A stretch of 32,000 bases of DNA from an uncultured Acidimicrobiaceae bacterium (GCA_963804055.1 CAWDOU010000001.1:451156-483155), one strand, 5' to 3'. Positions 7,072-25,748 are shown, counted from the stretch's first letter. The notes: generated by a model not told the origin, from the letters alone. Numbers and translations: made by a program.

Positions 7072-7466
7072 GCGTGCGCGTCCAGGTCCGCGAGGGACTG
7101 TTCACGGACGGCGAGGCGCCGGCGCTCCTGGGTACCCGTTGCGCCGCCTGCGGATCGGTCCACTTCCCCCGGGCCGATTCCTGCACCTACTGCGCCACCG
7201 AAGACCCCGAGCCGGTGGAGTTGTCCCGCCACGGCACGTTGTGGGCCTGGACCGCGGTGACCGCGCCGCCGCCCGGCTACCAGGGCGAGGTGCCGTTCGG
7301 CGTCGGCGTGGTCGAGCTGCCCGAGGGGGTCCGGGTCATCACGCGGCTGACCGAGAGCGACCCCGGCGCGCTGACGGAGGGGCAGCCGATGGAACTGCGC
7401 ATCGTGCCGCTGCACCGGGACGAGGACGGGAACGACGTCGTGACCTACGCCTTCGCGCCGGCATGA
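7068..7466 (+). CDS. Zn-ribbon/OB-fold protein (DUF35 family, thiolase partner)
   Basis: Has a CxxC...CxxC rubredoxin-like knuckle (CAACGSVHFPRADSCTYC) followed by an OB-fold segment (GTLWAWTAV...PFGVGVVEL). Stop/start overlaps occur on both sides (TTGA at 7068, ATGA at 7463). Confidence 0.85.
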   Translation: MSVRVQVREGLFTDGEAPALLGTRCAACGSVHFPRADSCTYCATEDPEPVELSRHGTLWAWTAVTAPPPGYQGEVPFGVGVVELPEGVRVITRLTESDPGALTEGQPMELRIVPLHRDEDGNDVVTYAFAPA

Positions 7467-8596
7467 CCGGCGTCACGGTGGCCGGCGTCGGCCTGCACCC
7501 CTTCGGCCGCTTCGACGGCGTCTCGACCACCGACATGGGCGTGGTCGCCGTGCGCGCCGCCTTGCGCGAGGCCGGCATCGGCAAGGGCGGGTTCCAGGCC
7601 GCCTTCTGCGGCACGGCCTACGGCGGGGTCGCCACGGGCCACAAGGTGCTGAGCCGGCTCGGCATGACGGGCATGCCCATCGTCGACGTGGAGGCCGGCT
7701 GCGCGTCAGGCGGTGCCGCACTGATGCTGGCGGGGGCCGCCATCCGGGCCGGGCAGTACGACACGGTCCTCGTCTTCGGCACGGAGAAGATGCCCAAGGG
7801 GATCATCCGCTCGTCGTTCTTCGACCCCTGGCAGGAGGAGGCGGGCCTCGCCTCCACGCCGGCATTCTTCGGCCTGCGGGCGCAGCGACTGTGCCGGACC
7901 TCCGGCATCACCAAGGACCACCTGGCCCGGGTCGTGGTGAAGAACCGTCGCCACGGAGCGGCCAATCCCGACGCCATGTACCAGAAGGAGACGACCGTCG
8001 AGGCGGTGCTCGGATCACGGGTCGTGTGCGACCCGCTCCACCTCTTCATGCTGTGCTCGCCCAACGAGGGTGCCGCCGCCCTGGTGCTGCGGCGGGCCGA
8101 CCTGGCCCCGTCGGGCGTGACGCTGGCCGCAGCCGTGCTGCGCTCCCACATCCCCGGTTCGGTGCTGAGCGAGTCGACGCCACTGGCCGGCAAGGCGGAC
8201 GACGACGTCCCGGCGCCGACCACCCTGGCTGCCACGGACGCCTACGAGGAAGCCGGGGTGGGACCTGCTGATCTGCACGTCGTGGAGTGCCAGGACACCG
8301 ACGCCGCCCGCGAGCTGGGCTCGTGCGAGGAACTGGGCCTGTGCGAGCCCGGCGGGTCCGCCGCGCTGCTCGACTCGGGCGCCACCACCCTGGGCGGACG
8401 CCTCCCGGTCAATCCGAGTGGGGGGCTGCTCTCGAAGGGCGAGCCGCTCGGCGCCTCCGCCCTGGGCCAGGTGGTCGAGCTCGTGCGCCAGCTGCGGGGC
8501 GAGTGCGGGCCACGCCAGGTCGAGGGCGCCCGGGTGGCCTTGTCACACACGGTGGGCCGGGGGGCCAACGCCGGCGTGGTGATCCTGACCCGTTGA
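7463..8596 (+). CDS. SCP2-type thiolase-like protein / lipid-transfer protein (Ltp-like)
   Basis: Begins MTGVTVAGVGLHPFGRF. Contains VEAGCASGGAAL (nucleophile Cys box) and NPSGGLLSKGEPLGASALGQ. Translationally coupled to the DUF35 gene. The track ORF 6947..8596 is trimmed to ATG 7463. Confidence 0.85.
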   Translation: MTGVTVAGVGLHPFGRFDGVSTTDMGVVAVRAALREAGIGKGGFQAAFCGTAYGGVATGHKVLSRLGMTGMPIVDVEAGCASGGAALMLAGAAIRAGQYDTVLVFGTEKMPKGIIRSSFFDPWQEEAGLASTPAFFGLRAQRLCRTSGITKDHLARVVVKNRRHGAANPDAMYQKETTVEAVLGSRVVCDPLHLFMLCSPNEGAAALVLRRADLAPSGVTLAAAVLRSHIPGSVLSESTPLAGKADDDVPAPTTLAATDAYEEAGVGPADLHVVECQDTDAARELGSCEELGLCEPGGSAALLDSGATTLGGRLPVNPSGGLLSKGEPLGASALGQVVELVRQLRGECGPRQVEGARVALSHTVGRGANAGVVILTR

Positions 8597-8620
8597 GCTG
8601 ACCGCAGGAAGAACACGCGA

Positions 8621-8637
8621 CCGGCCACGGGGGCCGG
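8621..8637 (+). terminator. candidate GC hairpin after the thiolase operon
   Basis: CCGGCC (8621-8626), a 5-nt loop, then GGCCGG (8632-8637), 25 nt after the stop at 8596. There is no U-tract, so this is weak. Confidence 0.25.
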
Positions 8638-8650
8638 CGGGGAGCCGTGC

Positions 8651-9169
8651 ATGGTCGATGCGAGCCTGTGGCAGGAGGGTCCGGAGTCGCCGGTCACCGA
8701 GTGGCGGGCGACCGTCTGGGGCATGCCGACCCTCTTCTCCCTGATGGGCATTGTGTTCGGACTCGGCTTCCTGGTGATCGGCGCCGATCATCTCGTGGCA
8801 CCGACGAGCTCGATCTCCCGTCTGCTTGCGCTCGGAATGATCGTCGGCGGACTGTGGTTCGCCGGTCTGAGCGGGCTGTCGGCCCTTTTCACCGTGAAGA
8901 GCATCAGGTTGCGGGAAGACGGAGACCTCGTGTTCACCGCATGGCGCCGGGAGGTCCGTGTCCAACCGGGTGGCCTGCTCTCCGTGCAGCCTGTGGTGTT
9001 CGATTGGAACAGGCTGCTTCCCTTCAGGGTCGACTCGGACCAGGGGACCCTCTGGTTGTGGCCCAGGTTCACCGACATGGACACGCTCTGGGACGCGTTC
9101 TTGTCGCACAGCCTGTTGGCGTCCGTTGCGCCGCTTTCGCCGTCCTTCCCGTGGAGCCGGAGCGGCTGA
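8651..9169 (+). CDS. membrane protein, two TM helices plus a beta-rich C-terminal domain (bacterial PH-like/YdbS-like layout)
   Basis: 172-aa ORF. Hydrophobic helices are LFSLMGIVFGLGFLVIGA and LLALGMIVGGLWFAGLSGL. Next comes VKSIRLREDGDLVFTAWRREVRV, a TM-TM-PH type arrangement. The family call is tentative. Confidence 0.5.
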   Translation: MVDASLWQEGPESPVTEWRATVWGMPTLFSLMGIVFGLGFLVIGADHLVAPTSSISRLLALGMIVGGLWFAGLSGLSALFTVKSIRLREDGDLVFTAWRREVRVQPGGLLSVQPVVFDWNRLLPFRVDSDQGTLWLWPRFTDMDTLWDAFLSHSLLASVAPLSPSFPWSRSG

Positions 9170-9193
9170 GAGCTGGTCGCGTTGCGGTCGATC

Positions 9194-10078
9194 TCAGGCG
9201 CCCGCGGGCGCGGTCAGGGAGGAGCGCCACGCCGGGGGAGCGATCGTCGCGAGATCGCGCTGCACCTTCGGCGTGCTGTCGCGCGGAGGCGAGTCGAAGA
9301 ACGTGATCGATCGGCAACCCGACAGGGAGACGAGCACGGGTCCGAAGGCCGTGCCGTCGGCGTACTGGAAGTACAGACGTGCCTCGGAGCCATTGTCTCT
9401 CGGGCAGGCCACGCCGGCGTGAGCCGCCGGAGCCGCATTGATGTCGTCCACCAGGGTCGAAGCGAGTCGGGCCCCGATCGACCCATAGGCGATTTTGCAC
9501 TGCGTGCTGTCCGACCCCGGGTCCCATTGCACGGTGCCGGCGGCCGGTTGCGAGCGAATGGGCACCGTCGTGGTTCCCGGGGGAGATGTGGCGGGGTAGA
9601 CGAGGTCGCAGCGTCCATCACGCACGTACGTCGTTTGCACGACCCGGGGGATGGACTGCACGTTGAACGCCGACTGCCCGATTGACGTGCAGCTCTGCTG
9701 TCGGGTGACCGGCAGGAATCCGCCCCCGACGCTGACGAGGTCGCCCTCGTGCGCAATGACGTGTCCTTGTGCATTGAGCAGTTCGGCGGGGTGGAGCCGC
9801 ACTTTGAAACCGGTTGGCCACAGGAAGGGGTCACGCCCCCCGAGGCCGGCGCAGGCGCCCGACTTGGTCAGATAGACGTGGAATGGCCCTTCGCTCGCGG
9901 CCTCCATGGAGAAGCCCCCGTCAGACGTCCAGCCGTCGGACGGAAGCGAGTAGGTCGGCCCGTCGTGCGAGTGTGCGCTTGCCGCCGCCGCGGAGGACGT
10001 CAGCCCGGTCCCGAAAGCCAGTACGGCCAAGACGATGACGGCGCCGGCCCGCCCGGTCCGAAGCGTGTGCGTGCTCAC
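9194..10078 (-). CDS. secreted hypothetical protein
   Basis: 294-aa ORF with a signal-peptide-like N-terminus (RTGRAGAVIVLAVLAFGTGLTSSAAAASA). Several Cys residues lie in the mature part. No family recognised. Confidence 0.55.
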   Translation of the reverse strand: MSTHTLRTGRAGAVIVLAVLAFGTGLTSSAAAASAHSHDGPTYSLPSDGWTSDGGFSMEAASEGPFHVYLTKSGACAGLGGRDPFLWPTGFKVRLHPAELLNAQGHVIAHEGDLVSVGGGFLPVTRQQSCTSIGQSAFNVQSIPRVVQTTYVRDGRCDLVYPATSPPGTTTVPIRSQPAAGTVQWDPGSDSTQCKIAYGSIGARLASTLVDDINAAPAAHAGVACPRDNGSEARLYFQYADGTAFGPVLVSLSGCRSITFFDSPPRDSTPKVQRDLATIAPPAWRSSLTAPAGA

Positions 10079-10139
10079 CAGCCAACACGATACGTCGGAC
10101 GTGTTCGAATTGTCGGTCCCGGTTCACCGGGCCTTCCGC

Positions 10140-10583
10140 TCAGGAGCGGGGCGGCAGCACCGTGAAGGCGATCGTCGAGACGGCCGCCAGCTTGTTCTCC
10201 CGGCCGACGTCCGTGACCTCCACCTGGAGCACGAAGGTGGAACGGCCCTGCCGCACGATCCAGGCGTCGGCGCGTGCGGGGCCGACGGCCACCGGGGACA
10301 GGAAGTGGATGTTCATGTCCGAGGTCGCGGTGCTGAAGCCGTTCTCGTGATCGCACGAGTCATAGGCCAGACGTCCGGCGCAGACGTCGATCAGCACCGC
10401 AATGAGGCCGCCCTGCAGCGCGCCACGGACATTCGCCACTTCCGGGCGGACGTCCATCTCAATGATGAGGTGACCCTCGGGCGCCGGGATGTCCTTCGTG
10501 CCGAGTTGCTCGAAGAGGTGCCCCCCCTGTGCGATCACCTCGTTGTGCAGCTGGGACAGTTCCGCGTTGGGGAGCTTCGCCAT
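10140..10583 (-). CDS. PaaI-family hotdog-fold thioesterase
   Basis: Trimmed to ATG 10583 (MAKLPNAELSQLHN...). The segments NVRGALQGGLIAVLIDVCAG and FLSPV...A.IVRQGRS fit the PaaI/4HBT pattern. The 63-aa upstream extension of the track ORF is Pro/Arg/Gly-rich. Confidence 0.8.
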   Translation of the reverse strand: MAKLPNAELSQLHNEVIAQGGHLFEQLGTKDIPAPEGHLIIEMDVRPEVANVRGALQGGLIAVLIDVCAGRLAYDSCDHENGFSTATSDMNIHFLSPVAVGPARADAWIVRQGRSTFVLQVEVTDVGRENKLAAVSTIAFTVLPPRS

Positions 10584-10609
10584 GGGACATGGATATCCCA
10601 ACTCCGACG

Positions 10610-10637
10610 GGGCCGCTAATCGGGTCGGGCGCGGCCC
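10610..10637 (-). terminator. candidate hairpin downstream of the 217-aa gene
   Basis: GGGCCGC (10610-10616) pairs with GCGGCCC (10631-10637) across a 14-nt loop, about 20 nt after the minus-strand stop at 10657. There is no clear U-tract. Confidence 0.25.
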
Positions 10638-10656
10638 TCCGTTGCCGATGCGAGGC

Positions 10657-11310
10657 CTACCTCGTGACGTCGAAGGTGGCGGTCCCCGTCGTCCTGTCCC
10701 CGTGGTGCACCGTCCGACCGATTGTGCCGGTGACGTGGTCGGAGCCGATCGTCCCGCTGAAGTGGGCGACATTCGACGTCGTCCGTCCGGTCAAGGTGGC
10801 GTGGATCGGCTGTCCGTGGAAGGAGCCGGTGACCGTGCCGAACGTCTGCGCGGCCTTCGACGTCAGGCTCAGATTCGACAGGTTCAGCGAGATGTCGAGG
10901 GTGAAGGCGGTCCCCTCGATCGTCCCGGTGATGTCCGCCACGGGCAGGCTTGCGGGGATGGAGAGCGAGGTCGTGCCCAGTCCCGTGCCGCTCTGCTGCG
11001 GCAGGGGTGGGACGACACCGGTCGCAACGATCGGGAGCCCGCGGGCCGAACCGCTGATCGGCCCGATGGTGGGCTTTGTCCCGCTCGCGCCGGTCCACGA
11101 GACGGTGGCACTGCCTTTTCCGAGGGGAATCGAACGCAACCGTGCGATCTCGGCCGTCACGGGCACGGAGAGCAACCCGAGCGCCGTCAGTGTCCCGACG
11201 GCGATGGCGGTGCAGCGCCACGTCCCGCGCCGGGACCACAGGCGAGGGGAGTGTCCGGCCGGCATCCGCTGATCGTAGGCAGCCACGATGTCCCAGGGCG
11301 GCGAGTTCAT
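10657..11310 (-). CDS. membrane-anchored/exported hypothetical protein
   Basis: 217-aa ORF with an N-terminal hydrophobic anchor, CTAIAVGTLTALGLLSVPVTA. The remainder is Gly/Thr/Ser-rich with recurring GTI/GTV motifs. No family recognised. Confidence 0.5.
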   Translation of the reverse strand: MNSPPWDIVAAYDQRMPAGHSPRLWSRRGTWRCTAIAVGTLTALGLLSVPVTAEIARLRSIPLGKGSATVSWTGASGTKPTIGPISGSARGLPIVATGVVPPLPQQSGTGLGTTSLSIPASLPVADITGTIEGTAFTLDISLNLSNLSLTSKAAQTFGTVTGSFHGQPIHATLTGRTTSNVAHFSGTIGSDHVTGTIGRTVHHGDRTTGTATFDVTR

Positions 11311-11432
11311 CCCGTCGTCACGCTTCCTTCGCGGCCCGTGGCCTCACCGGGTCGGCCGGAGGCGGTGCATAGGATTGCTCCGTGGCGTCGGCCGGCGAAC
11401 CTCCGACACCGGATCCCCTCTGGGTCGGTGAC

Positions 11433-12488
11433 ATGCAGATCCGTCTGCTGGCTCCGTCCGAGTCAGCCCGGCTCGGCGAAGCCGTTCGGGCCGTCTACGG
11501 CGAGACCTACCCCGTGCAGTGGACCTACGACCCGGACGAGGTGGCCCGCCGTATCGCCGCCGGTCTCCTGATCTCGGCCATCGCCGAGACGGCCGAGGGC
11601 GAGCTGCTGTGTCATTCGGGTCTCGTGCTCAACGCACCGGGTGACGCCATCGGCCACGCCGGCCAGGCTCTGACGCTGCCCGCGGCGCGGGGGCAGCACA
11701 TCTTCACCACGGTCAAGCGTTACCTCGTCGACTGGGCGGCGGCCCTGGCGCTCGTCGGCATGTACAGCGAGGCCACTGCCGCCCATCCCTACAGCCAGCG
11801 GGCCCTGTTGGATCTGGGCGGCCACGAGACGGGATTCTTGCTCGGCTTCATTCCTGCGACGGTCGACAACAACGCCGCGGAGGGGTCGAGCCGGGGCCGC
11901 ACGTCGGCCGCATTGTTCTTTCTCCGGTTGCGACCGGGCCATGAGCGGATGCTCTATGCGCCCACCCGTCACCGCGACATCGTGCTCCAGACGATTCAGA
12001 TCTGTGGGTCCCGGTCCACCCTGGCCGAGGCGCCGGCGAGCCCGGACCTTCCCCCCGTCTCCGAACTCTCCATCGAGAATGATCCCGGCGACAACGTCGC
12101 GACCCTGATGGTGCACCGGGCCGGCGAGGACCTGACCGCCCGTGTCGACGCGGAGCGCGCCCGGCTGTTCGGTGAGGGCGTCGACGCCCTGTATGTGGAT
12201 CTGCCGCTCGACCGGCCCGAGTCGGCGCACGTGAGCACTGCCCTGCAGGAGCTCAGCCTGTCCTACTCGGGGATCTTCCCCAACAACCGGGCCGCGGCGG
12301 ACGTCCTCCGGCTGCAGTGCCTGCGCGACGCCACCGCCTGGAGTCACGACGTGGCGGTGGCCTCCCCCCACGGTGCCGCACTGCTCGAGTATGTGATCGC
12401 GGACATGGAGGCGGTGGGCCAGAGGGTCGAGCGGGCCGCCAACACGTGTGTTCCCGGTGACGCCGTCCCGCTGGTCGCCGTGCGCTGA
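11433..12488 (+). CDS. GNAT-like acetyltransferase with an uncharacterised C-terminal half
   Basis: The N-terminal ~150 aa (MQIRLLAPSE...LTLPAARGQHIFTTVKRYLVDWA...YSQRALLDLGGHETG) has the layout of a GNAT acetyl-CoA-binding fold. I could not assign the C-terminal ~200 aa. The start could also be ATG 11382. Confidence 0.55.
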   Translation: MQIRLLAPSESARLGEAVRAVYGETYPVQWTYDPDEVARRIAAGLLISAIAETAEGELLCHSGLVLNAPGDAIGHAGQALTLPAARGQHIFTTVKRYLVDWAAALALVGMYSEATAAHPYSQRALLDLGGHETGFLLGFIPATVDNNAAEGSSRGRTSAALFFLRLRPGHERMLYAPTRHRDIVLQTIQICGSRSTLAEAPASPDLPPVSELSIENDPGDNVATLMVHRAGEDLTARVDAERARLFGEGVDALYVDLPLDRPESAHVSTALQELSLSYSGIFPNNRAAADVLRLQCLRDATAWSHDVAVASPHGAALLEYVIADMEAVGQRVERAANTCVPGDAVPLVAVR

Positions 12489-12503
12489 GGGCGCCAACCC
12501 GGA

Positions 12504-13118
12504 TCAGGCGATCGGGAAATCGAAATAGGTGTCCGGGTACGGCTCGTGTCCGAGGGTGTAGTGCCACCATTCACGGTCGTAGGACCTGAAGCCGCAGTCC
12601 TCCATGATGGAGCACAGAGAGCGGCGGTTCCTCGCCTCGAGTTGCGAGATTCCCCGTGCGCCATGATGCGAGATCGGATCCATCAGATCGTGGTCTCCAC
12701 CCATGGCAGCCAGATCTCCGCTGCCCAGGTCGTAGAGGGTCAGGTCGACCGTGCTGCCCCTGCTGTGCCCCGATCTGGTCGCCACGTAGCCGTCCTCGAA
12801 CATCGTGACCCTCTCCATGTTGGGATAGTGCCGCATCTTCGTCCGGCCGTCCTCCGGCTGTTCTGACCATCGCACGAAGCAATCCACGGCCCGCTGCGGC
12901 CGGTAGCCGTCCCAGAGGAGCAGACCGAAACCCCACGACGCAGCCTGGTCCCGTGCGTGCGCGAGCGCTGCGCACAATGCCCTCGTACCGACGATGCGAT
13001 TCGCCAGGTACCCGTCGACCGGCCGCCCGGTGAAGTTGTCCCACGTGGCGTACTTTGCATCCCAGCGAACTCCGGGCACCAGCTCGTCGACGTAGACGAA
13101 CTGCTCGAACATGGTCAT
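12504..13118 (-). CDS. vanX: D-alanyl-D-alanine dipeptidase VanX
   Basis: Trimmed to ATG 13118 (MTMFEQFVYVDELVPG...). VanX signatures are present: WDGYRP, SGHSRGSTVDLTL (Zn ligands) and REWWHYTL. Its start overlaps the ligase stop (ATGA at 13115-13118). Confidence 0.92.
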   Translation of the reverse strand: MTMFEQFVYVDELVPGVRWDAKYATWDNFTGRPVDGYLANRIVGTRALCAALAHARDQAASWGFGLLLWDGYRPQRAVDCFVRWSEQPEDGRTKMRHYPNMERVTMFEDGYVATRSGHSRGSTVDLTLYDLGSGDLAAMGGDHDLMDPISHHGARGISQLEARNRRSLCSIMEDCGFRSYDREWWHYTLGHEPYPDTYFDFPIA

Positions 13119-14149
13119 CTCGCGCTCAGCGCCAAGGCCACGACCCGGTCGACGACATCGGCGAGCGACCATCCCGCGGCCGCCATCATCCTCGGAAAGC
13201 GGCTGTACGACGTCAGGCCGGGCATCGTGTTGACCTCGTTCAGGACGACCGTTCCGTCCTCCTGCAGGAACAGGTCCACCCGCGACAGACCCCGGCACCC
13301 CAAGGCCTGGTAGAGGGTCCTCGCCGTCTCTTGGACACGTGCTCGTGATTCCGGTGGGATGTCGGCGGGCACAATGAAGGTGGCGTTCTCCGAGCCACTC
13401 TCCGGCCGCTGTTCCTGATGGATTCTGAAGAACCCATGGGACAGAGCGACGCGGTCCGGCTCGCCGACGATCAGGTCGGCGCCGTTGCCGATGACCGCGC
13501 AGCCGATCTCGCTCCCGATGAGGGCGTCCTCAATGAGGACCTTCGTGTCGTAGCGCCGTGCGGTGTCGATCGCACCCAGGAGTTCCTCCGGGCGGGAGAC
13601 CTTGCTGACGCCGAACGACGACCCCGACCGGGCCGGCTTTACGAACACGGGGTAGGTGAACTCGTCGGGATCGACGACAACGTGCGGTGTGATCGCTCGG
13701 AAACGCGGTGTTTCGATGCCGGCCTGGCGAGCGACGAGGTACGTGAGCGACTTGTCCATGCACAGCGCGGAGCTCTGAATGTCGCAGCCCACGTAGGGGA
13801 CGCCGGACAGGTCCAGCAAGCCCTGGATGGCCCCGTCCTCGCCCTGTTTCCCGTGCAGAACAGGGAACACCAGGTCCACGGGGACCTCTTCGTAGCCCTC
13901 CGGGGTGTGGACGAGGAGCCCGTGCACGCGTCGGTCCGGCGACAGCAGCGCGGGAAGGCAGGTGCCGGCTTCCCAATCCGCATCGGGGTCGTCACACAGT
14001 GTCCAGTTGCCCCGTGTCGTGATGCCGACGTAGAACGGTTCGTACGTAGCGGGGTCGAGGGCCCTCGCGACCTCTTGCGCTGACTTGAGCGAAACCGCAT
14101 GCTCTTCTGAAGATCCTCCGAAGAGGACCGCGATCCGCACCCTAGCCAT
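13115..14149 (-). CDS. vanA: D-alanine--D-lactate ligase (VanA/VanB-type)
   Basis: Begins MARVRIAVLFGGSSEEHAVSLKSA. Contains GFFRIHQEQRPESGSENATFIVPADI and LNEVNTMPGLTSYSRFPRMMAAAG. These closely parallel enterococcal VanA as I recall it, including the His-containing RIHQE segment. Flanked by vanH and vanX with overlapping stop/start codons. Confidence 0.92.
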   Translation of the reverse strand: MARVRIAVLFGGSSEEHAVSLKSAQEVARALDPATYEPFYVGITTRGNWTLCDDPDADWEAGTCLPALLSPDRRVHGLLVHTPEGYEEVPVDLVFPVLHGKQGEDGAIQGLLDLSGVPYVGCDIQSSALCMDKSLTYLVARQAGIETPRFRAITPHVVVDPDEFTYPVFVKPARSGSSFGVSKVSRPEELLGAIDTARRYDTKVLIEDALIGSEIGCAVIGNGADLIVGEPDRVALSHGFFRIHQEQRPESGSENATFIVPADIPPESRARVQETARTLYQALGCRGLSRVDLFLQEDGTVVLNEVNTMPGLTSYSRFPRMMAAAGWSLADVVDRVVALALSAR

Positions 14150-15197
14150 GAGGATCCGCTCCCAGGAAGCAGAGACAGTTGGTGAGAGTGGCCTCCATGA
14201 TGTCCCGGAGGGCGTGGTCCGTGTAGTAGGCGGTGTGTGGTGTGATCACGACGTTCGGCAGCTTCTGCAATCGCGCCAACAGCGGGTGCGAAGCGGGATC
14301 CCGGCTGTGATCGAAGTAGAAGATGCCGTCCTCGCCTTCGAGGACATCCAGGGCCGCTCCACCGAGGCGCCCGCTCTCCAGGGCGTCGAGAAGGGCCTCC
14401 GTGGCGACGAGTGATCCCCGTCCCGTGTTGATGACGAACGCCCCTGGCTTCATCTGCCCGATCCGTTGGCGGTCCAGGAGGTGGTGGGTCTCTCCGGTGA
14501 GAGGCGTGTGGAGCGTGACGACATCGCTGTGCGCCAGCAGGGCGGCGAGGGGCACGCAGCCGATGGAGGGCTCTGGACGCCGGTCATGGACGAGCACCCG
14601 ACCGCCGAAGCCCCGCAGGCGGTCGAGAACCGCAGATCCGATGCGCCCCGCCCCGATCACGCCGATCGTCATGTCGCGGAGCTCCCGCCCGAGGACCTCG
14701 CCCAATCGGTAGTCGTGCGCCTGTGAGCGGAGGACTGTCGATTGGGCGTTTCGCGCCACCATCAACAGCAACAGCAGCGTATAGTCGGCCACGCTGGCCG
14801 GCGAGTAGGCGACGTTCTCGACCGAAATCTGCAGGCACTCCGCTGCGCGCAGATCGATATGGTCATATCCCACGCTCCTGGTCGAGATGTACCTCACGCC
14901 GGCCTGGTGGAGAGCACGAAGGGTGGCGTGTGAGACCTGCGATTTGTGGCCGATGCTGATGCAGCGATTTCCGGCGCTCAGGCGAGCGGTTCCCTCCGAC
15001 GCCGGGGCGCTTGTGATGGTCGGGCTGACGCCATGTCGGGCCGCGATCTCCCGGAGCAAGGCCGTCTCGTTCGGCTCGCAGCCATAGAAGGTGATGCCGA
15101 TCCGAGCAGAGGTGTGGGTTTCATGGCGCGCGCCCGCAGAGAACGCCGGCCGGGGTGCGGGGTGAGCTGCCGAGCGCACCGGTACTCTGGGGTCCAC
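14142..15197 (-). CDS. vanH: D-lactate (2-hydroxyacid) dehydrogenase VanH
   Basis: Has IGITFYGCEPNE near the N-terminus, the NAD-binding segment GVIGAGRIGSAV, and the D-2-hydroxyacid dehydrogenase core. An 8-nt overlap with the vanA start lies at 14142-14149. The first ~33 aa are an Ala/Pro/Arg-rich extension, so the true start is uncertain. An in-frame GTG lies at 15179. Confidence 0.88.
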   Translation of the reverse strand: MDPRVPVRSAAHPAPRPAFSAGARHETHTSARIGITFYGCEPNETALLREIAARHGVSPTITSAPASEGTARLSAGNRCISIGHKSQVSHATLRALHQAGVRYISTRSVGYDHIDLRAAECLQISVENVAYSPASVADYTLLLLLMVARNAQSTVLRSQAHDYRLGEVLGRELRDMTIGVIGAGRIGSAVLDRLRGFGGRVLVHDRRPEPSIGCVPLAALLAHSDVVTLHTPLTGETHHLLDRQRIGQMKPGAFVINTGRGSLVATEALLDALESGRLGGAALDVLEGEDGIFYFDHSRDPASHPLLARLQKLPNVVITPHTAYYTDHALRDIMEATLTNCLCFLGADPHG

Positions 15198-15287
15198 CCC
15201 ATCGAGTCAATCCATTGCGATGTTGTCAGCGGGTATCGAGCTTTGGATACGCCGGCGATATGTCCCGGCACGTAACCTGGCCTGAAT
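15198..15287. promoter_or_regulatory. divergent vanH / vanR control region
   Basis: A 90-bp gap between the divergent vanH and vanR starts must hold both promoters. ATCGAG occurs at 15201 and 15235, and GCGAT(g/a)T(t)GTC-like words at 15217 and 15255. A TAACCT (TANNNT) -10-like hexamer at 15273-15278 sits 9 nt before the GTG start of vanR, and there is no SD. Confidence 0.45.
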
Positions 15288-15974
15288 GTGCGTGTTCTGA
15301 TCGTCGAGGACGAGCCCTACATGGCCGATGCCATTCGTGACGGTCTACGGCTGGAGGCGATCGCCGCCGATATCGCAGCGGACGGTCACGCTGCCCTGGA
15401 GCTGTTGCGCGTCAATTCCTACGACATCGCCGTCCTCGACCGCGACATCCCAGGGCCCTCTGGTGACCAGGTGGCGGGGCGCATCGTCGCCTCGGGCAGC
15501 GGCATCCCTATCCTCATGCTCACAGCCGCAGACCGCCTCGATGACAAGGCTTCCGGGTTCGAGCTCGGCGCCGACGACTACCTCACGAAGCCCTTCGAGC
15601 TCCGGGAGCTCGTGCTTCGCCTCCGGGCACTCGATCGCCGGCGAGCGCACCACAGGCCGCCGGTGCGGGAGATCGCAGGGTTGCGGCTCGATCCGTTCCG
15701 ACGCGAGGTGTATCGGGACGGGCGCTATGTCGTGCTCACCCGCAAGCAGTTCGCAGTGCTCGAGGTACTCGTGGCGGCAGATGGCGGCGTCGTCAGTGCC
15801 GAAGAGCTCTTGGAACGGGCTTGGGACGAGAATGCGGACCCTTTCACGAATGCGGTGCGCATCACGGTCTCATCGTTGCGCAAGCGTCTCGGTGGGCCCC
15901 CGATCATCGCCACGGTGGCCGGTGTCGGCTATCGGATCGAGGCTGCGGCGGAGTCTGAGGAAGATCATGGATAG
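15288..15974 (+). CDS. vanR: OmpR-family response regulator VanR
   Basis: The receiver domain shows MRVLIVEDE, the phospho-acceptor context DIAVLDRDIPG, and DDYLTKPF. A winged-helix C-terminus is present (LTRKQFAVLEVL...GVGYRI). It is divergent from vanHAX and overlaps vanS by 8 nt. Confidence 0.85.
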   Translation: MRVLIVEDEPYMADAIRDGLRLEAIAADIAADGHAALELLRVNSYDIAVLDRDIPGPSGDQVAGRIVASGSGIPILMLTAADRLDDKASGFELGADDYLTKPFELRELVLRLRALDRRRAHHRPPVREIAGLRLDPFRREVYRDGRYVVLTRKQFAVLEVLVAADGGVVSAEELLERAWDENADPFTNAVRITVSSLRKRLGGPPIIATVAGVGYRIEAAAESEEDHG

Positions 15975-17073
15975 AGCCTCCGGCTTGAGTGTTCGCCTCA
16001 AACTGACGCTCAGCTACGCCGGTTTCGTCATGGTCGCAGGTGCCCTTCTCCTTGGTGCCGTCTGGGTGTTCCTGTTGCGCTACGTGCCCAGGGGCGAGAC
16101 CGTTATCGTCCACAACTCGCGCATCCTGGTGTCCCCGGGTCGCGGCGAGCTTCTGCGGGATTTCGGGCCGGCTGCAGCCGTCGTCCTGGTGTGTCTGTTG
16201 GTTTTCGGGCTCCTCGGGGGATGGCTTCTTGCCGGCCGGATGCTCGCCCCTCTGGCCCGGATCACCGAGGCCACACGCATGGCTGCAGAAGGATCACTGT
16301 CGCATCGGATACGCCTCCCCGGCCGGAAAGACGAGTTCCGCGAGTTGGCAGATGCCTTCGACACCATGCTGGCGCAGCTGGAGGCACATGTGGCGGAACA
16401 GCAGAGGTTCGCCTCCAACGCCTCCCATGAACTTCGCACGCCGCTGGCGATCACACAGACACTTCTTGAGGTCGCGCGAAACGATCCCTGTCGAGGAGAC
16501 GACCAGCTCGTCGACCGTCTTCTCCTGGTGAACGCCCGCGCCATCAATCTCACCGAGGCGTTGCTGGTGCTCAGCCGCGTCGACCAACGGTCGTTCACGC
16601 CGGAGGACGTCGACATGTCGCTTGTGGTGGAGGAAGCCACCGAGGTGCTCCTTCCTCTCGCCGAGAAGCACGGCGTGACGATGGATGTCTCCGGAGGCCT
16701 GGCTCAGACGACGGGTTCCGCTGCACTCTTGTTGCAACTGACGACGAACCTCGTGCACAACGCAATCGTGCACAATCTCGATCACGACGGTGCCGTGTGG
16801 GTCACCATCGGTGTCCAGGGCCAAGACGTGGTGCTGACGGTCGAGAACACCGGAGCGAGGCTCACCGCGCAGGCCGTCTCCACACTGGTCGAGCCGTTCC
16901 AGCGCGGATCCACGCGCCTGCACACCGACCACGGTGGCATAGGTCTCGGGCTGGCGCTTGTCGACAGCATCACGAGCGCACACGACGGGACGCTCACGCT
17001 GGCCCCCCGTCCCAGCGGAGGGCTCTGTGCGGTGGTTCGACTGCCCGCGGTGCCACGGGAGGTGGTTCGGTAG
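15967..17073 (+). CDS. vanS: sensor histidine kinase VanS
   Basis: ATG 15967 lies inside track ORF 15328..17073. There are two TM helices with a short extracytoplasmic loop, a HAMP-like linker, the H-box ASHELRTPLA, the N-box LVHNAIVHN and the G-box DHGGIGLGLALV. Confidence 0.85.
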   Translation: MDRASGLSVRLKLTLSYAGFVMVAGALLLGAVWVFLLRYVPRGETVIVHNSRILVSPGRGELLRDFGPAAAVVLVCLLVFGLLGGWLLAGRMLAPLARITEATRMAAEGSLSHRIRLPGRKDEFRELADAFDTMLAQLEAHVAEQQRFASNASHELRTPLAITQTLLEVARNDPCRGDDQLVDRLLLVNARAINLTEALLVLSRVDQRSFTPEDVDMSLVVEEATEVLLPLAEKHGVTMDVSGGLAQTTGSAALLLQLTTNLVHNAIVHNLDHDGAVWVTIGVQGQDVVLTVENTGARLTAQAVSTLVEPFQRGSTRLHTDHGGIGLGLALVDSITSAHDGTLTLAPRPSGGLCAVVRLPAVPREVVR

Positions 17074-17156
17074 ATATCCGGTCCTGGGCCGTCGCGCCTG
17101 TTCCGCAGGCTCGCAGACCCCCATACGTGCTTCGTCGTCACGAACTGATTCCAAAG

Positions 17157-17681
17157 GTGTACGTGAAAACCTTCCCGAAAGTGGTCCTCGCGGTGTACAC
17201 GGCCGTCCTGCTCTGGCTGATTCTGTTCAAGTTCTCAGTGCATATCGATGCTGTGCTGCACTACGACAGGAGGAGTCTGAACCTCGTGCCGTTCTCGGAC
17301 GCTTCGGGGAGCGTGGGCGAGATGCTCGACAATGTCCTCGTCTTCATCCCGTTCGGTGTGTTATTGGGCGTCACCTGCAAGCGTCTCAATGTGTGGCGCA
17401 AGCTTCTCGTTGTCCTTGCCTTCAGCCTGACCGTCGAGGTGCTGCAGTACGTGTTCGCCATCGGAGCCTCGGACATCACCGACGTCATCGCGAACACGTT
17501 CGGTGGCCTTCTCGGGCTGATGGCCTATGACCTGGGTCGCAGGCACATTCGTAAAGAGAGCCTCGACAGGTTCATCGTGACCGCGGGAAGTGCGTTCCTC
17601 GCGGTGTTTCTCCTGCTTCTTGCGGTAGTGGAGATCCGTCATGGAGTGCGATATCACTTGCCCCACACGAGGGGCAACTGA
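17157..17681 (+). CDS. VanZ-like family membrane protein
   Basis: The C-terminal part of track ORF 16797..17681 has the layout VLAVYTAVLLWLILF...NLVPF...NVLVFIPFGVLLG...EVLQY...SDITDVIANTFGGLLG, typical of VanZ (PF04892). The start is ambiguous: GTG 17127, 17157 or 17163. GC is visibly lower here than in the van enzymes. Confidence 0.75.
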   Translation: MYVKTFPKVVLAVYTAVLLWLILFKFSVHIDAVLHYDRRSLNLVPFSDASGSVGEMLDNVLVFIPFGVLLGVTCKRLNVWRKLLVVLAFSLTVEVLQYVFAIGASDITDVIANTFGGLLGLMAYDLGRRHIRKESLDRFIVTAGSAFLAVFLLLLAVVEIRHGVRYHLPHTRGN

Positions 17682-17705
17682 ATGAGGGTCGGTGAGCCGC
17701 CGAGA

Positions 17706-18116
17706 TCAGGGCAGCGTGGAGCCCGCGTCCATCGGGACTCCGACGACCGAGGCGATCCGGCTGAGGTCGGCGTCGTGGGCCAGGAGCACCGCCCCGTGGC
17801 GGAGCGCCACCGAGGCGATCATGCAGTCCACCAGCCCACGTGGTGTCACGCCGGCCCGGCGACATCTCCGATAGATCAGGCTCGCTGCGTCGAAATCGGC
17901 GACGGCCTCGAAGGTGAGCAGGTGACAGCGGGCGAGCAGTCGCTGCAGATCGGCCGCCCGGTTGTCACTGCGCGCGCCGGCGACGACTTCCATGACGACG
18001 GGTTCGGTGACCGCCAAGGCGCCATCGTCGGCGATGAGTTCGGCCATGCGTTGGTCGACGCGGCTGCCGGAACCGCGGTCGTACTCCACCCAGGCCGAGG
18101 TGTCGGCGAGGATCAC
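17706..18116 (-). CDS. vapC: PIN-domain ribonuclease toxin VapC
   Basis: Begins MILADTSAWVEY. The PIN acidic residues appear in ILADTS, VMEVV, LVDCMIA and LLAHDAD. The GTG start overlaps the vapB stop (GTGA at 18113-18116). Confidence 0.88.
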   Translation of the reverse strand: MILADTSAWVEYDRGSGSRVDQRMAELIADDGALAVTEPVVMEVVAGARSDNRAADLQRLLARCHLLTFEAVADFDAASLIYRRCRRAGVTPRGLVDCMIASVALRHGAVLLAHDADLSRIASVVGVPMDAGSTLP

Positions 18117-18325
18117 CGCCCGTCGGCGGGGCCCGAGTCCTGGGGAACCTCCCCGATGGCGTGCGCCCCCCGCATCGCCAGCGCCTCGTCACGGGTCATG
18201 GGCTGCCCGGCGAGGTGCCGGAGTGCCAGGTCGACCGCTTCCGTCTTCGTGTGCACGCCGTAGCGGTCCATCACCGCCCGGAGAACCGTCTCCTCTATCT
18301 CGATGTTGGTGCGTGCCCGGCTCAT
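18113..18325 (-). CDS. vapB: VapB-family antitoxin
   Basis: Trimmed to ATG 18325 (MSRARTNIEIEETVLRAVMDRYGVHTKTEAVDLALRHL), the classic VapB_antitoxin N-terminus. 70 aa, with a 4-nt overlap with vapC. Confidence 0.8.
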   Translation of the reverse strand: MSRARTNIEIEETVLRAVMDRYGVHTKTEAVDLALRHLAGQPMTRDEALAMRGAHAIGEVPQDSGPADGR

Positions 18326-18362
18326 ACACGTATCGTACACATGACGTGTAGGGAGCGTGTAG
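18325..18362 (-). promoter_or_regulatory. vapBC operator/promoter (four TACACG/CGTGTA half-sites, leaderless -10)
   Basis: TACACG lies at 18325, TACAC(a) at 18336, and CGTGTA at 18345 and 18356. This makes two pairs spaced 11 bp apart in inverted orientation. On the minus strand TACGAT (TANNNT) lies at 18332-18337, 6 nt upstream of the vapB ATG, and there is no SD. Confidence 0.5.
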
Positions 18363-18669
18363 CAAAGCACGCCGTTAATGGTGGATGGAGCCGCAGGGAA
18401 GAGGGTGATTGGTGTCCAGTCCCACAATCCGGATCGACAATCGTCTCGAAACTAACGCCATACCAAGATGAGCATCCCTCCTCGAATTGTCCCTTAGCTG
18501 GACGTCCAGGTGCAGGCCTCACATGAGGCGATCCAAGCTGGCGCATTCGTCACCCGTGAAGGTCTTCAAAGTACCTGACTCCGCAACAGTTGTCGCTGCC
18601 ATTTCCCAGCGGCATACTTCCCAACCGAGCGTTGGGCTGTGAGCCCGATTCTGGCGAAGGCGGTGCACG

Positions 18670-21600
18670 ATGATCAGTCGGCAGAGGGGATCGGGGAGGC
18701 GCGCGCCTTCCACTCAAGCGCCCCCTTTTGCGCGCCTGCCCCAGGGTCGCCTGGGGCGCGGGACATTCCTGGCCTGGGTTCGCCTGGCCCTGTGCACCGC
18801 GCTGGCCGCCGCCGCATCGATCTTGGCCCTTGGTGTTCCTACGGCCAGCGCTGGTGCCGCCGAGCACGCCACGAGCAGCACCTTGGGCTATCGCCTCGTC
18901 GCCTCTGACGGGGGCATCTTCGGCTACGACGCTGCTTTCTTCGGATCTGCTGGTGGCAGGCATCTCAACGAGCCCATCGTCGGCATGGCGCCCACTCCTT
19001 CGGGCGACGGGTACTGGGAAGTTGCCTCCGACGGTGGCATCTTCAATTACGGCGACGCCAAGTTCTTGGGGTCGACGGGAGCCATCCATCTGAACAAGCC
19101 CATCGTTGGCATGGCGGCCACCCCCGATGGCGGGGGCTACTGGCTGGTGGCATCCGACGGCGGCATCTTCACCTACGGCGACGCCAGGTTCTTCGGTTCC
19201 ACCGGTGCCATCCATCTGAACAAGCCCATCGTCGGCATGGCGGCCACCCCTGACGGCGGTGGCTACTGGCTGGTGGCCAGCGACGGTGGGATCTTCACCT
19301 ATGGCGACGCCGGCTACTACGGCTCGACGGGCAATGTCCACCTCAACAAGCCGATCGTGGCCATGACGGCGAGTCCTGACGGCGGGGGCTACTGGCTGGT
19401 GGCCTCCGACGGGGGCATCTTCAACTACGGAGATGCCACCTTCTTGGGATCGACCGGGGCCGTCCACCTCAACAAGCCGATCGTCGCCATGACCCCGACC
19501 CCTGACGGCGGGGGCTATTGGCTCGTGGCCTCCGACGGGGGCATCTTCAACTACGGCGACGCCACCTTCTTGGGATCGACCGGCGGGACAGCGCTCAACG
19601 CCCCCATCGTCGGACTCACCTTCTACCGCTTGATCCTGCATCAGCCGGTCACGTCGCCCACGACCACGTCACCGACCACGACCATTGCACCGACGTCGCC
19701 CACGACGACGACGACTGCCCCGACCACGACGACGACAACCATCCCGACCTCGACCACCACATCAACATCGACCACCAGCACCACGACGACGATTCCTCCC
19801 ACCACGACCACCACGACCGCCTCACCGACGTCGACTACGACGACCACTGCACCCACCACTACGACCACCACGACCACTTCACCGACGTCGACCACCAGCA
19901 CGACGTCGACCACCAGCACGACGGTGGCGACCCCCATTCCGACGATCACCTCGATCAGCCCGACCGCTGGGCTGACCTCGGGTGGGACGTCGGTTGTCAT
20001 CACCGGCACACACCTCAACGGGGCGACCACGGTCAAGTTCGGCACCGCCTCAGCCAGATTCACCGATGACAGCACCACCTCTGTCACGGCCACCGCCCCA
20101 GGAGGGTCAGCCGGCACCGTCGACATCACGGTCACGACACCGGGGGGCACTTCGGCCACCTCGTCGGCCGATCAGTTCACCTACGTGGCCGTTCCCGCTG
20201 TCTCCTCCATCAGCCCGACCGCAGGAAGCTCCTCCGGGGGCACGAGTGTCACCATCACCGGGACCAACCTCTCGGGGGCCACCTCGGTCGAGTTCGGATC
20301 CAACCCGGCCACAGTTACCGGCGACAGCACTACCTCGATCATTGCGACCGCACCCGCGGGAACGGGCACCGTCGACGTGACCGTCACCACTCCCGGAGGC
20401 ACCTCGGCCATTTCGGCGGCCGACGAGTTCAGCTACGTCTTTGACCCATGCAGCCCGCTAACGGCAAACACGGAGGTTCCCTCGGGCATCTATGTCGTCA
20501 ATTGCACAATGGACGTGCCCCCAGGCGTCACTTTGACGCTTGACCCTGGTGTGATCCTGAAGTTCGGATCAGCAGATGGCATCACCGTCGACGGCACGCT
20601 CGACGCCGTGGGCACCAGCACCGAGCCCATCACCTTCACCTCTCTCAACGACAACTCGGTTGGAGGTGACACTGGCGATGGAACCCCAGGCGTCACAGAC
20701 TGGAGCGGGATCTCCGTTCAGAACTCAGGGTCAATCGATCTCGAGCACGCCGAGATCGCCTACGGAGCGGACGGCATCGAAGGCGGCGGCAACGGATCGT
20801 TCGTCGTCTCCAACGACGTCTTCTTGACCACGGGCACGCCCGTGTCGCTCGACACCTCTGCCTCGGTCACGATCCAGGACGACACCTTTAGCAACAGTGG
20901 CGAGACCCCAGTTTCCGTCGATGCCCCGACGCCGGTGGTCGAGAACAACACCGTGAACCAGAACTCGAGTTCTGGTTCGTCAGAGGTCGCTTTCAGCGTC
21001 GACGGCACCGCGCTCGACCTCAGCCAGTTGCAGCCCAACACAGTGATCGGTACTGGCTTCGTCGGGTTCCAGATCTCAGGGGTTCTGGCCGCAAGTGGGA
21101 CCCTTGCGGCAGGTCCACAACCTTGGATGGTTGGCGCCAATGAAACGGAGACCTCCCTCGTCGTGCCCCAGGGGATTACCTTGACCGTCGCACCGGGTGT
21201 CGTGGTCAAGGGGACGCAATTCGGGTGCGGACCCTATTGCTCGGTTGTGAGCCTCAAGATCGACGGCACGCTCGACGCCGTGGGCACCAGCACCGAGCCC
21301 ATCACCTTCACCTCTCTCAACGACAACTCGGTTGGAGGTGACACTGGCGATGGAACCCCAGGCGTCACAGACTGGAGCGGGATCTCCGTTCAGAACTCAG
21401 GGTCAATCGATCTCGAGCACGCCGAGATCGCCTACGGAGCGGACGGCATCGAAGGCGGCGGCAACGGATCGTTCGTCGTCTCCAACGACGTCTTCTTGAC
21501 CACGGGCACGCCCGTGTCGCTCGACACCTCTGCCTCGGTCACGATCCAGGACGACACCTTTAGCAACAGTGGCGAGACCCCAGTTTCCGTCGATGCCCCG

Positions 21601-22848: not shown

Positions 22849-23166
22849 GTTGCGTTCGCCGCGATACGTGCAGGCCAAACGACCACTGTCTGCCGAGGGC
22901 GGCTATTGCTGCCGAACGATTGAATGCGACGGATAGCATTCGCGCCGGCTGCAAGGGAGCGCGTGGAGAGACCGCAACCTGGCGCCTTTCGATAACCGTA
23001 GAAGATGCTGAGACCATGGTGAGATTGCCATGTGATTTCTGGAGCTACGGCTAGTAATCGGCAGCCCTGCAACATATGCCTGTCCAAGCGTCTGGTAGTT
23101 CGCAGATTCACAACCTCCCTTCACGGTGGCGACGCGTACCTGGCTGGGCCTAGGCAGCTTTCGGAG

Positions 23167-24447: not shown

Positions 24448-24541
24448 GGGTCAACTCCTCGTTGGACAGGCCCACGGGCGCGAGGAGACCCCGGCGCGTC
24501 GCGGGTCGTGGTGCTGGACGTGCCGGGCCGCAGCCCGGGGA

Positions 24542-24607: not shown

Positions 24608-24745
24608 GCCTGCACCTCCTTGTCGCGCGTCGTCAGCGGATGTTGACGCGACGAGTCTACGTCAAGGGAGCGCGTGTGCCCAGCGCGTCACGCCGGCGGC
24701 GCGTCGAGTCGACGCAGCACGGAGGGCGAGCCACACCGGCCTCGA

Positions 24746-25690: not shown

Positions 25691-25748
25691 GGGGGTCACC
25701 CTACGCGGCCCGGGCACGCGGCCATCGGTGCCCGGTAGGGTCACCCCC

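Follow-up and report, generated by a model that had tools for sequence, protein, structure and literature searches.

A probable inducible glycopeptide-resistance cassette of the vanHAX–vanRS kind, carried within a 10.7-kb insert in a soil Acidimicrobiaceae genome

Clinical glycopeptide resistance is held to have its natural reservoir in the van clusters of soil Actinomycetota. The cluster of Streptomyces coelicolor, vanRS-vanJ-vanK-vanHAX (VanA-Sc type), is inducible and is carried by a non-producer. In the Rhodococcus equi operon vanO, vanHOX is reported (Gudeta et al. 2014) to be opposite in transcription to the regulator genes. In Enterococcus, the VanA operon of Tn1546 (vanRSHAXYZ) is collinear, and vanI is the type of Desulfitobacterium / Desulfosporosinus. 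Arrangements of the vanHAXRSZ and vanRS-vanZ kinds occur in Cryptosporangiales, Micromonosporales and Micrococcales (Andreo-Vidal et al. 2021, PMC8698665). The same 2021 survey, the most extensive in print, recovered no van-like gene in 216 Acidimicrobiales assemblies (PMC8698665), so the class of the host described here lies outside its coverage.

The locus treated here lies in a 32-kb window, by which we mean the whole stretch of 32,000 nucleotides that was analysed. Judging from its sequence, it is probably a functional, inducible D-Ala-D-Lac glycopeptide-resistance cassette, part of the flexible genome of an uncultured soil Acidimicrobiaceae genus, that arrived within a 10.7-kb insert. All six genes of the original prediction are present where it placed them, in the divergent arrangement it described. 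On the minus strand are vanX (12504-13118; 204 aa, D-Ala-D-Ala dipeptidase; NF033115 equivalog, 392 bits against a cut-off of 320, and Pfam Peptidase_M15), the D-alanine-(R)-lactate ligase gene (13115-14149; 344 aa; NF000206 D_ala_D_lac, 581.9 bits, cut-off 550) and vanH (14142-15197; 351 aa, D-lactate dehydrogenase, for which VanH models are all the best matches). On the plus strand are vanR (15288-15974; 228 aa, OmpR-family response regulator), vanS (15967-17073; 368 aa, sensor histidine kinase) and a gene for a VanZ-family membrane protein (17163-17681; 172 aa; Pfam VanZ, PF04892, 85.6 bits, GA 30.1). The couplings, read at the junctions, are likewise as described: vanH and vanA overlap by 8 nt (ATGGCTAG), vanA and vanX have ATGA in common, and vanR and vanS overlap by 8 nt (ATGGATAG). 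The D-Ala-D-Lac remodelling cassette is complete and intact, and is accompanied by a two-component regulator of its own and a gene of the VanZ family. Values of dN/dS of 0.08-0.25 in comparisons with four relatives indicate that all six genes are under purifying selection.

The enzyme triad of S. coelicolor recurs in the window, down to the 8-nt and ATGA couplings. Its ligase is ~70-72% identical to VanA-Sc-type ligases (NF000129 score 565, cut-off 650), its VanR is ~85-90% identical to VanR of Actinomycetes van loci, and the repeat ATATCG-N5-RTATC stands upstream of vanH both here and in many Streptomyces loci. The sensor loop of S. coelicolor VanS is short, as it is in the window VanS (PMC7109055). 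Unlike the S. coelicolor cluster, the window has neither vanJ nor vanK and has a VanZ-like gene after vanS; its vanRS is directly divergent from vanHAX, with one common 90-bp control region, and its ligase belongs to a separate Acidimicrobiaceae clade. With R. equi the likeness is in the regulators, whose top NCBIfam models are VanR-O and VanS-O; the VanO-type scores are below their cut-offs for VanR (433, cut-off 505), VanS (446, cut-off 720) and the ligase alike, and the murG and orf2 accessory genes that accompany vanO (PMC8698665) are absent from the window. The mechanism and gene families are those of Tn1546, with identities of 60% for the ligase, 61% for VanX, 54% for VanH and 50% for VanZ (over 141 aa); at 34% for VanR and 24% for VanS, the window regulators are of another lineage. 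Unlike Tn1546, the window lacks vanY and a Tn3-family transposase or resolvase, and it is divergent where Tn1546 is collinear. In having a VanZ-like gene attached to vanRS beside vanHAX, the window resembles the arrangements of non-producing Actinomycetota reported in PMC8698665.

The ligase is above the general D-Ala-D-Lac cut-off and below every type-specific NCBIfam cut-off (VanA, B, D, F, I, M, O, A-Sc and A-Ao2), the top scores being VanI (573 bits, cut-off 700), VanA-Sc (565, cut-off 650) and VanO (541, cut-off 750). Since no type-specific cut-off is reached, the sequence identifies the protein at 13115-14149 as a D-alanine-(R)-lactate ligase that belongs to none of the named van types. 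The predicted VanA-type segment RIHQE...GSENA was confirmed, as FRIHQE...GSENA (RIHQEQRPESGSENA, residues 242-256). In Van ligases, the Tyr of Ddl enzymes is replaced by an omega-loop His, and the corresponding His244 is invariant in a 17-sequence alignment. In the tree, the Van D-Lac clade stands apart from Ddl and D-Ala-D-Ser ligases, and the window ligase falls inside it with 99/99 support rather than with the housekeeping Ddl. The only ddl of the assembly is separate, on contig C13, and its product is 37% identical to the van ligase. The window ligase and three other Acidimicrobiaceae sequences form a clade of their own (100/99); vanI is in the same large group of the tree, and the Clostridia ligases form another clade (100/99), apart from that of the window. 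When the tree was rooted on the genome's own Ddl, the window clade appeared as the earliest Van branch. This is a long-branch artefact, the Ddl outgroup branch measuring ~10 changes/site; use of 16 nearer outgroups, among them one that scores above the VanG cut-off, shifted the root and abolished the effect, so the basal placement was dropped. No feature of the ligase tree marks the window copy as ancestral.

VanX has the zinc motifs attributed to it, SGHSRGSTVD at residues 116-125 and EWWH at 183-186, and so has the Zn ligands (His, Asp, His) and the catalytic Glu in addition to a score above the equivalog cut-off. VanH is below the cut-off of every VanH model (vanH_gen 454.7, cut-off 540; VanH-Sc 436; VanH-Amyco 423), and the best family outside VanH reaches just 187 bits. 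It has the Pfam domains 2-Hacid_dh and 2-Hacid_dh_C and, in translation, the motifs GAGRIG (GxGxxG), NTGRG, LEGE and TPH, and its gene is translationally coupled upstream of the ligase. Two details of the original prediction need amending: the vanH start at 15197 is GTG, not ATG, and the N-terminal extension, 33 aa long and variable, is usual for actinobacterial VanH rather than unusual. The same design, an in-frame GTG followed by an extension of varying length (9-42 aa), is present in 18 of the 20 distinct clusters from Acidimicrobiia and also in two Actinomycetes, and the NCBIfam actinobacterial VanH models are 337-351 aa long.

Among the Acidimicrobiia and Actinomycetes loci listed, regulators adjacent to vanHAX are 81-93% (VanR) and 63-81% (VanS) identical to those of the window. 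These identities mark VanRS as a van-associated two-component system of the actinobacterial type; the subtype cut-offs of the best-matching models, VanR-O and VanS-O, are missed. VanS has two predicted TM helices, an extracytoplasmic loop of ~30 aa, and the HAMP, HisKA and HATPase domains. For vanZ, the ORF as listed from 16797 overlaps vanS; the start is most likely GTG 17163, with AAAGG upstream, giving 172 aa. The VanZ-like protein scores 158 bits against NF033125 VanZ-A (cut-off 250), and orthologues of its gene lie downstream of vanS in the relatives G042 and G048.

The divergent control region (15198-15287; 90 bp) separates vanH from vanR. On the vanH strand it contains three hexamers, ATATCG / GTATCC / TCGATAC, in 11-bp phase (15233-15261). 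TTGACT (15205-15210) stands 7 nt before the vanH GTG, and TAACCT (15273-15278) 9 nt before that of vanR. All the Acidimicrobiia clusters show conservation of this block. Most of the 24 Acidimicrobiia loci carry this VanR-box with a leaderless-type promoter, TTGACT-N6-7-GTG being in frame in 18 of 20 distinct clusters, and the ATATCG-N5-RTATC repeat is upstream of vanH in most Actinomycetes loci too. A search for the two-box operator motif gave a single site in the window, and a single site in the 4.2-Mb genome as a whole. Hong et al. reportedly described, in 2004, a VanR-dependent leaderless-type van promoter in S. coelicolor. We infer that the control region is a putative promoter of this kind; the reading stays at that level because TTGACT matches the actinobacterial -10 consensus TANNNT poorly.

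From these elements we propose the following scheme. VanS would sense glycopeptides at the membrane and phosphorylate VanR, as their families suggest, and VanR-P would bind the three phased hexamers and turn on vanH-ligase-vanX leftward and vanR-vanS(-vanZ) rightward, both from leaderless-type promoters. D-lactate made by VanH would be joined by the ligase into D-Ala-D-Lac, and VanX would degrade the D-Ala-D-Ala produced by the housekeeping Ddl; with this dipeptide removed, precursors would end in D-Lac, which vancomycin binds poorly. Some further protection, against lipoglycopeptides, probably comes from the VanZ-like protein. The host is an uncultured soil Acidimicrobiaceae MAG (class Acidimicrobiia; 86% complete, 3.4% contamination). 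No NRPS condensation domain was found in the genome at this completeness, which supports the view that the host is a glycopeptide non-producer; the likely use of the cluster would then be defence against soil producers.

How did the cluster reach its present site? In two genus relatives, the genes that flank it are next to each other, ~23 bp apart in G072 and ~850 bp apart in G003; homology with G072 stops near 12495 and restarts at 23173. These abutting flanks define an insert of 10.68 kb (12496-23172). On the left is a conserved gene for a 368-aa protein with no Pfam match (11382-12488, plus strand), with 78-81% nt identity in G003, G010 and G072, where it adjoins the right flank; on the right is an Nramp-family transporter gene (23167-24447, minus strand; Pfam Nramp 264 bits), with 86-87% nt identity in G003 and G072. 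In addition to the van cluster, the insert contains a vapC (PIN) and vapB toxin-antitoxin pair (17706-18362, minus strand; Pfam PIN 56.5 and VapB_antitoxin 42.8 bits), convergent with vanZ, and a gene for a 1392-aa secreted repeat protein (18670-22848, plus strand; IPT/TIG and NosD-like beta-helix, by Pfam and NCBIfam matches), which, being between the breakpoints, is co-resident cargo, and it ends in a 320-bp non-coding tail. The right-hand neighbours of the cluster are thus vapBC and a surface protein and not the ordinary metabolic genes expected. The original prediction that no mobile element is visible is right in part: neither a transposase, an integrase nor an NRPS gene was found in the 32 kb by Pfam scans of long ORFs. 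Against it stand the insert itself, missing from relatives at a site that is otherwise collinear, and the cluster of the sister species G042, which adjoins a tyrosine integrase, a tRNA-Lys, IS21 and IS110. In our window, the recombinase or transposase and the bordering tRNA or att repeats of an island or transposon are not seen: no tRNA gene was found across the 32 kb, and a search of the insert edges gave no repeats, direct or inverted, and no tRNA gene or att-like sequence. In G042, a repeat of the tRNA-Lys 3′ end was not found within the 20 kb fetched. We suggest that the cluster reached its current site within the insert; no recombinase is left next to it here, and the sister species retains its own cluster next to a tRNA-linked integrase.

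Base composition says less. The G+C of the insert is lower than that of its surroundings, and the trough noted toward vanZ (36/60 for 17161-17220, as counted) is real; as evidence of acquisition it is weak. Van ligase genes are ~5-7 points below their flanks in the Actinomycetes and Acidimicrobiia loci fetched and above them in Clostridia. Because the dip is family-wide in the high-GC hosts sampled and reversed in Clostridia, we dropped it as a stand-alone sign of recent transfer.

The alternative that survives best is that the cluster is an old vertical trait of the genus or class, lost by most lineages, the insert being what remains after deletions in relatives. The low G+C, being family-wide, is no mark of recent arrival; one divergent vanSR/vanHAX layout is found in 24 of 24 Acidimicrobiia loci and in none of the other classes sampled; and a single Acidimicrobiia clade is not rejected by the AU test (p = 0.46). 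Relative to G048, dS is 0.60-0.77 for van genes and 0.28-0.48 for two core genes, the van values being only ~1.5-2 times the core ones; as van dS is not far above core dS, vertical descent could account for some of the spread inside the closest sub-clade. As an account of the whole distribution, however, we consider vertical descent unlikely. The cluster is present in 3 of 41 relatives, in at least 13 of 81 genus genomes and in 3 of 400 other genomes of the class; it is patchy. Vertical conservation as core would have weakened the idea of acquisition; the cluster is not such a core, and this favours acquisition or flexibility. It lies on different contigs and at different sites in different species (in G048, on the opposite side of the ADH block). 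The relatives with the most similar flanks, G003 and G010 (87-92%), are without it, the junctions are clean, and G011 and G042 differ in van identity (72% and 80%) at equal core similarity to G000. The integrase and tRNA-Lys context in G042 also argues against vertical descent.

A silent cluster, or one with a role other than glycopeptide resistance, such as envelope remodelling on another signal, is much less probable still. The N-terminal half of the VanS sensor loop is unlike the DQGW stretch of the vancomycin-binding loop of S. coelicolor (PMC7109055), as this reading would have it; against this, every gene is under purifying selection, the enzyme triad is complete with intact catalytic motifs, VanR is close to van-linked VanR, and the predicted VanR box and promoter are conserved and common to Actinomycetes van clusters. 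An assembly or binning artefact that brought in the cluster of another organism is scarcely credible: the genome is a MAG and the insert is of lower G+C, but the insert is inside a 1.11-Mb contig whose flanks are collinear with many genus genomes (76-92% identical to 80 of them), every one of the nearest van clusters comes from a MAG of this genus, and a 99% identical ligase is present on a separate 12-kb contig.

Returning to the preferred reading, a resistance cassette of the flexible genome, this is an ordinary van system in an under-reported host class, with no new mechanism. Its interest lies in the distribution: in one abundant, uncultured soil Acidimicrobiaceae genus, complete clusters of vanHAX-RS that appear to be under selection occur in ~1/6 of the species, with several ligase lineages, one class-typical layout and at least one copy beside a tRNA-linked integrase. 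This extends the range of known van hosts and provides additional sequences for work on van ancestry. It is tempting to go further and propose that the Acidimicrobiia have their own long-resident, diverse van pool, the source of the shallow crown of Actinomycetes (VanA-Sc-like) and Clostridia (VanI-like) ligases; we regard this as doubtful. Were it true, part of the environmental van reservoir would have its root closer to this little-studied class than to the glycopeptide-producing actinomycetes.

Among other Acidimicrobiia loci, no recombinase was found in the ORFs scanned in the flanks of L015, L017 and L047. In L017 and L047, tRNA genes lie ~0.4-1.5 kb from vanX.

An open reading frame list and profile searches (Pfam and NCBIfam) agree on six van genes in the window. 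On the minus strand lie vanX (12504-13118, 204 aa; NF033115, 392 bits against a cut-off of 320), the gene of a D-Ala-D-Lac ligase (13115-14149, 344 aa; NF000206, 582 bits against a cut-off of 550) and vanH (14142-15197, 351 aa), whose top six families are all VanH models, the best non-VanH family reaching 187 bits. Divergent from these, on the plus strand, are vanR (15288-15974; top profile match VanR-O), vanS (15967-17073; top match VanS-O, with HAMP, HisKA and HATPase domains) and a VanZ-family gene (Pfam VanZ, 85.6 against 30.1), which most likely starts at GTG 17163, a codon preceded by AAAGG, and would then encode 172 aa. The original prediction of a complete cassette is borne out in much of its detail. 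Read from the sequence, vanH overlaps the ligase gene by 8 nt, the ligase gene and vanX share ATGA, and vanR overlaps vanS by 8 nt; the ligase carries RIHQEQRPESGSENA, including His244, VanX has SGHSRGSTVD and EWWH, and G+C at 17161-17220 is 36/60, as counted earlier. The motifs for NAD binding and catalysis typical of D-2-hydroxyacid dehydrogenases are present in VanH. vanX and the convergent gene on its left flank stop 15 nt apart (12488-12504), and the end of vanZ is 24 nt from the convergent vapC (17681-17706); neither side has space for separate terminators.

The cassette is thus real and intact, and its mechanism and every part are those of the classical VanHAX/VanRS system. Identity to the Tn1546 proteins is 60% for the ligase, 61% for VanX, 54% for VanH, 50% for VanZ, 34% for VanR and 24% for VanS. 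Pairwise dN/dS is 0.08-0.25 for all six genes in comparisons with G042, G048, G011 (relatives in the same genus) and L015 (a fetched van locus); therefore, the genes are maintained by selection. The cassette is very probably functional. For every named ligase type, the score stays below the NCBIfam cut-off (highest are VanI, 573/700, VanA-Sc, 565/650, and VanO, 541/750), and the ligase therefore falls outside all named types.

The divergent arrangement of vanS-vanR and vanH-ligase-vanX is common to the 24 Acidimicrobiia loci, 18 of them distinct, and absent from every Actinomycetes and Clostridia locus fetched. Among the Acidimicrobiia clusters, the 90-bp spacer between the two arms (15198-15287) is strongly conserved. 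Its sequence on the vanH strand is ATATCG-ccggc-GTATCC-aaagc-TCGATAC, followed by TGACAA, TTGACT, 7 nt and the GTG of vanH. If transcription starts at this GTG, the centres of the three hexamers fall near -61, -50 and -39, the usual position for an activator of the OmpR/PhoB type. On the opposite strand, the last hexamer precedes TAACCT by 11 nt, and TAACCT precedes the GTG of vanR by 9 nt; given this spacing, one operator could serve both promoters. The pair ATATCG-N5-RTATC has a single occurrence in the window, where chance would give 0.19, and a single one in the complete genome; most of the Actinomycetes loci fetched also have it upstream of vanH, and the Clostridia loci fetched all lack it.

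The same spacer bears on the start of vanH. The codon at 15197, which had been given as an ATG start, is GTG, and in the Acidimicrobiia clusters vanH is preceded by TTGA[CG]T-N5-8-GTG. In 18 of 20 distinct clusters the conserved GTG is in frame and the reading stays open as far as the VanH core, and the resulting extensions, of 9-42 aa, are always whole numbers of codons and poorly conserved in sequence. This combination speaks for the GTG as the true start and for a transcript with little or no leader. Accordingly, the N-terminal extension, earlier described as unusual, is an ordinary feature, a variable stretch that links the enzyme core to a start codon carried by the promoter.

Is the cassette part of the core genome of its host? 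The host is an uncultured soil member of the Acidimicrobiaceae, class Acidimicrobiia, and the window sits in a 1.11-Mb contig of an assembly of 4.22 Mb in 14 contigs (69% G+C, 86% completeness, 3.4% contamination). Besides the van ligase, the only gene of the Ddl family in this assembly is the housekeeping D-Ala-D-Ala ligase gene, ddl, on contig C13, whose product is 37% identical to the van ligase. Since no NRPS condensation domain is found in the assembly, the host is a non-producer, within the limits of an 86%-complete MAG. That the cluster might be vertically conserved core, an outcome that the original prediction had itself set against its reading, was checked, and its distribution is patchy. 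A D-Ala-D-Lac ligase above the family cut-off is present in 3 of the 41 relatives sampled and in 3 of 400 other genomes of the class (178 genera), and is absent from the 16 further families sampled in the order. In a DNA search of 81 genus genomes with window 7000-26500, at least 13 matched the van segment (about 12505-17056), with identities of 71-81%. A further five genomes (G020, G047, G060, G076 and G015) contain only vanRS-like DNA, at 75-76% nucleotide identity, with no vanHAX among the matches listed, and may carry orphan vanRS pairs.

In the same search, the thiolase gene (7000-8600) and the ADH/GSHPx block (24737-26500) were found in nearly all genus genomes, at 76-92% identity. In many of them the two are merely 100-750 bp apart, and therefore the intervening stretch is a variable region. 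Across the genus this stretch, window 8600-24737, is a variation hot spot: many genomes have 0.1-0.75 kb at this place, the genome of the window has 16 kb and G048 has about 50 kb. Within it, about 23 bp separate the counterpart of the gene at 11382-12488 from the Nramp gene (23167-24447) in the relative G072, and about 850 bp do so in G003. Because homology to G072 breaks off near 12495 and restarts at 23173, we recognize a 10.68-kb insert in the genome of the window. It comprises the two divergent arms of the van cluster (vanX-ligase-vanH and vanR-vanS-vanZ), vapBC with its PIN and VapB domains, a gene for a 1392-aa repeat surface protein and, at the right end between this gene and the Nramp gene, a putative non-coding tail of 320 bp (22849-23166) with lower G+C. 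The van cassette is thus accessory and occupies a 10.7-kb insert in a variable part of the genome. Most relatives with van have the cluster and the thiolase and ADH/GSHPx flanks on separate contigs; in G048 the cluster lies about 3.4 kb past the ADH/GSHPx block, on the opposite side.

The insert coincides with the G+C trough of the window. The van genes have 58-67% G+C and a GC3 of 0.77-0.83, against 0.86-0.95 for the core neighbours. Across the fetched van loci, however, G+C of the ligase gene and of its flanks is 0.60 and 0.65 in Acidimicrobiia, 0.64 and 0.705 in Actinomycetes, and 0.49 and 0.43 in Clostridia. Since this pattern is general across host classes, the intermediate G+C is a trait of the family and provides no clock. 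The argument for insertion is founded on the empty site rather than on composition.

The earlier claim that no mobile element is present holds literally for the window, where searches for tRNA genes, flanking repeats, integrases and transposases came up empty, but it does not extend to the lineage of the cluster. In G042, whose van cluster belongs to a sub-clade sister to that of the window (80% DNA identity, vanZ also present), a tyrosine integrase (Phage_integrase and SAM-like domain) and tRNA-Lys(TTT) directly adjoin the cluster, immediately downstream of vanZ (L095:13105-14475; G042:C15, about 39100-40475). Upstream of vanX are IS21 (IstA/IstB) and IS110 transposases and an adenylate-cyclase/AAA_16/TPR protein. 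This locus looks like a tRNA-linked island carrying van as cargo. In four other van-bearing genomes no integrase is on the van contig, or none within about 180 kb of van, and none is among the flanking ORFs scanned around the van loci L015, L017 and L047. In two of these Acidimicrobiaceae clusters a tRNA gene lies beyond vanX, tRNA-Ser at about 0.4 kb (L017:10081-10170) and tRNA-Arg at about 1.5 kb (L047:11201-11273).

A protein search with the ligase returns about 40 metagenome clusters at 75-84% identity, followed by named ligases of Streptomyces and Actinoallomurus and others of the VanA-Sc type at about 70-72%. In a tree with 16 near outgroups, the Van D-Lac clade has a support of 99/99. 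The window ligase pairs with L015, and that of G042 with L016, the locus of G048; all four join at 100/99, and L017 is added at 98/91. The remaining Acidimicrobiia ligases form an unresolved comb, and the crown of sampled Actinomycetes and Clostridia falls inside it, weakly supported (85-91); monophyly of the Acidimicrobiia ligases is compatible with the AU test (p = 0.46). Because the sample, the best 80 loci, is biased to query-like sequences and leaves out VanO, VanF, VanD and VanA-Ao, this tree allows no claim about ancestry. Two ligases come from contigs binned outside these classes: L089, whose 2.9-kb contig is binned as 'Patescibacteria group', branches within the Clostridia (VanI-like) clade, and for this short contig mis-binning seems likely; L045, on a 14.7-kb contig binned as 'Candidatus Dormiibacterota', falls in the Actinomycetes crown.

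Core identity to the genome of the window is alike for G011 and G042 (86-91%), and van identity is 72% for G011 and 80% for G042, a pattern that does not fit simple co-divergence. Against G048, the van genes have a dS of 0.60-0.77 and two core genes one of 0.28-0.48, an excess that is modest and confounded by codon bias.

The nearest relatives of the cluster in the literature are the van cluster of S. coelicolor, the vanO regulators of R. equi and the vanHAXRSZ arrangements of other Actinomycetota (PMC8698665). That survey found zero van-like genes in 216 Acidimicrobiales assemblies; a 2026 preprint gives only vanT and vanW calls for Acidimicrobiia MAGs, with van ligase, vanH and vanX calls in Thermoleophilia, and the class goes unmentioned in a phylogenetic study of 2024. 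Thus, complete vanHAX-RS clusters in Acidimicrobiia are undescribed in the literature searched, and a host class overlooked by the published survey (PMC8698665) is now seen to carry a van cassette. This is of moderate value for work on the resistome and on van ancestry, with little mechanistic novelty.

Some relatives depart from the common plan. In G044 (L029/L097) and G058 (L087/L102) the conserved GTG is out of frame with the VanH core, with stop codons too between them in G044, and vanH matches start only at residues 116-133; vanH may be broken in both, with ligase and vanX apparently intact. In G082 the van-linked vanS has a second two-component pair as its immediate neighbour (L099:4834-6880), a distant one at 48% to VanR and 35% to VanS.
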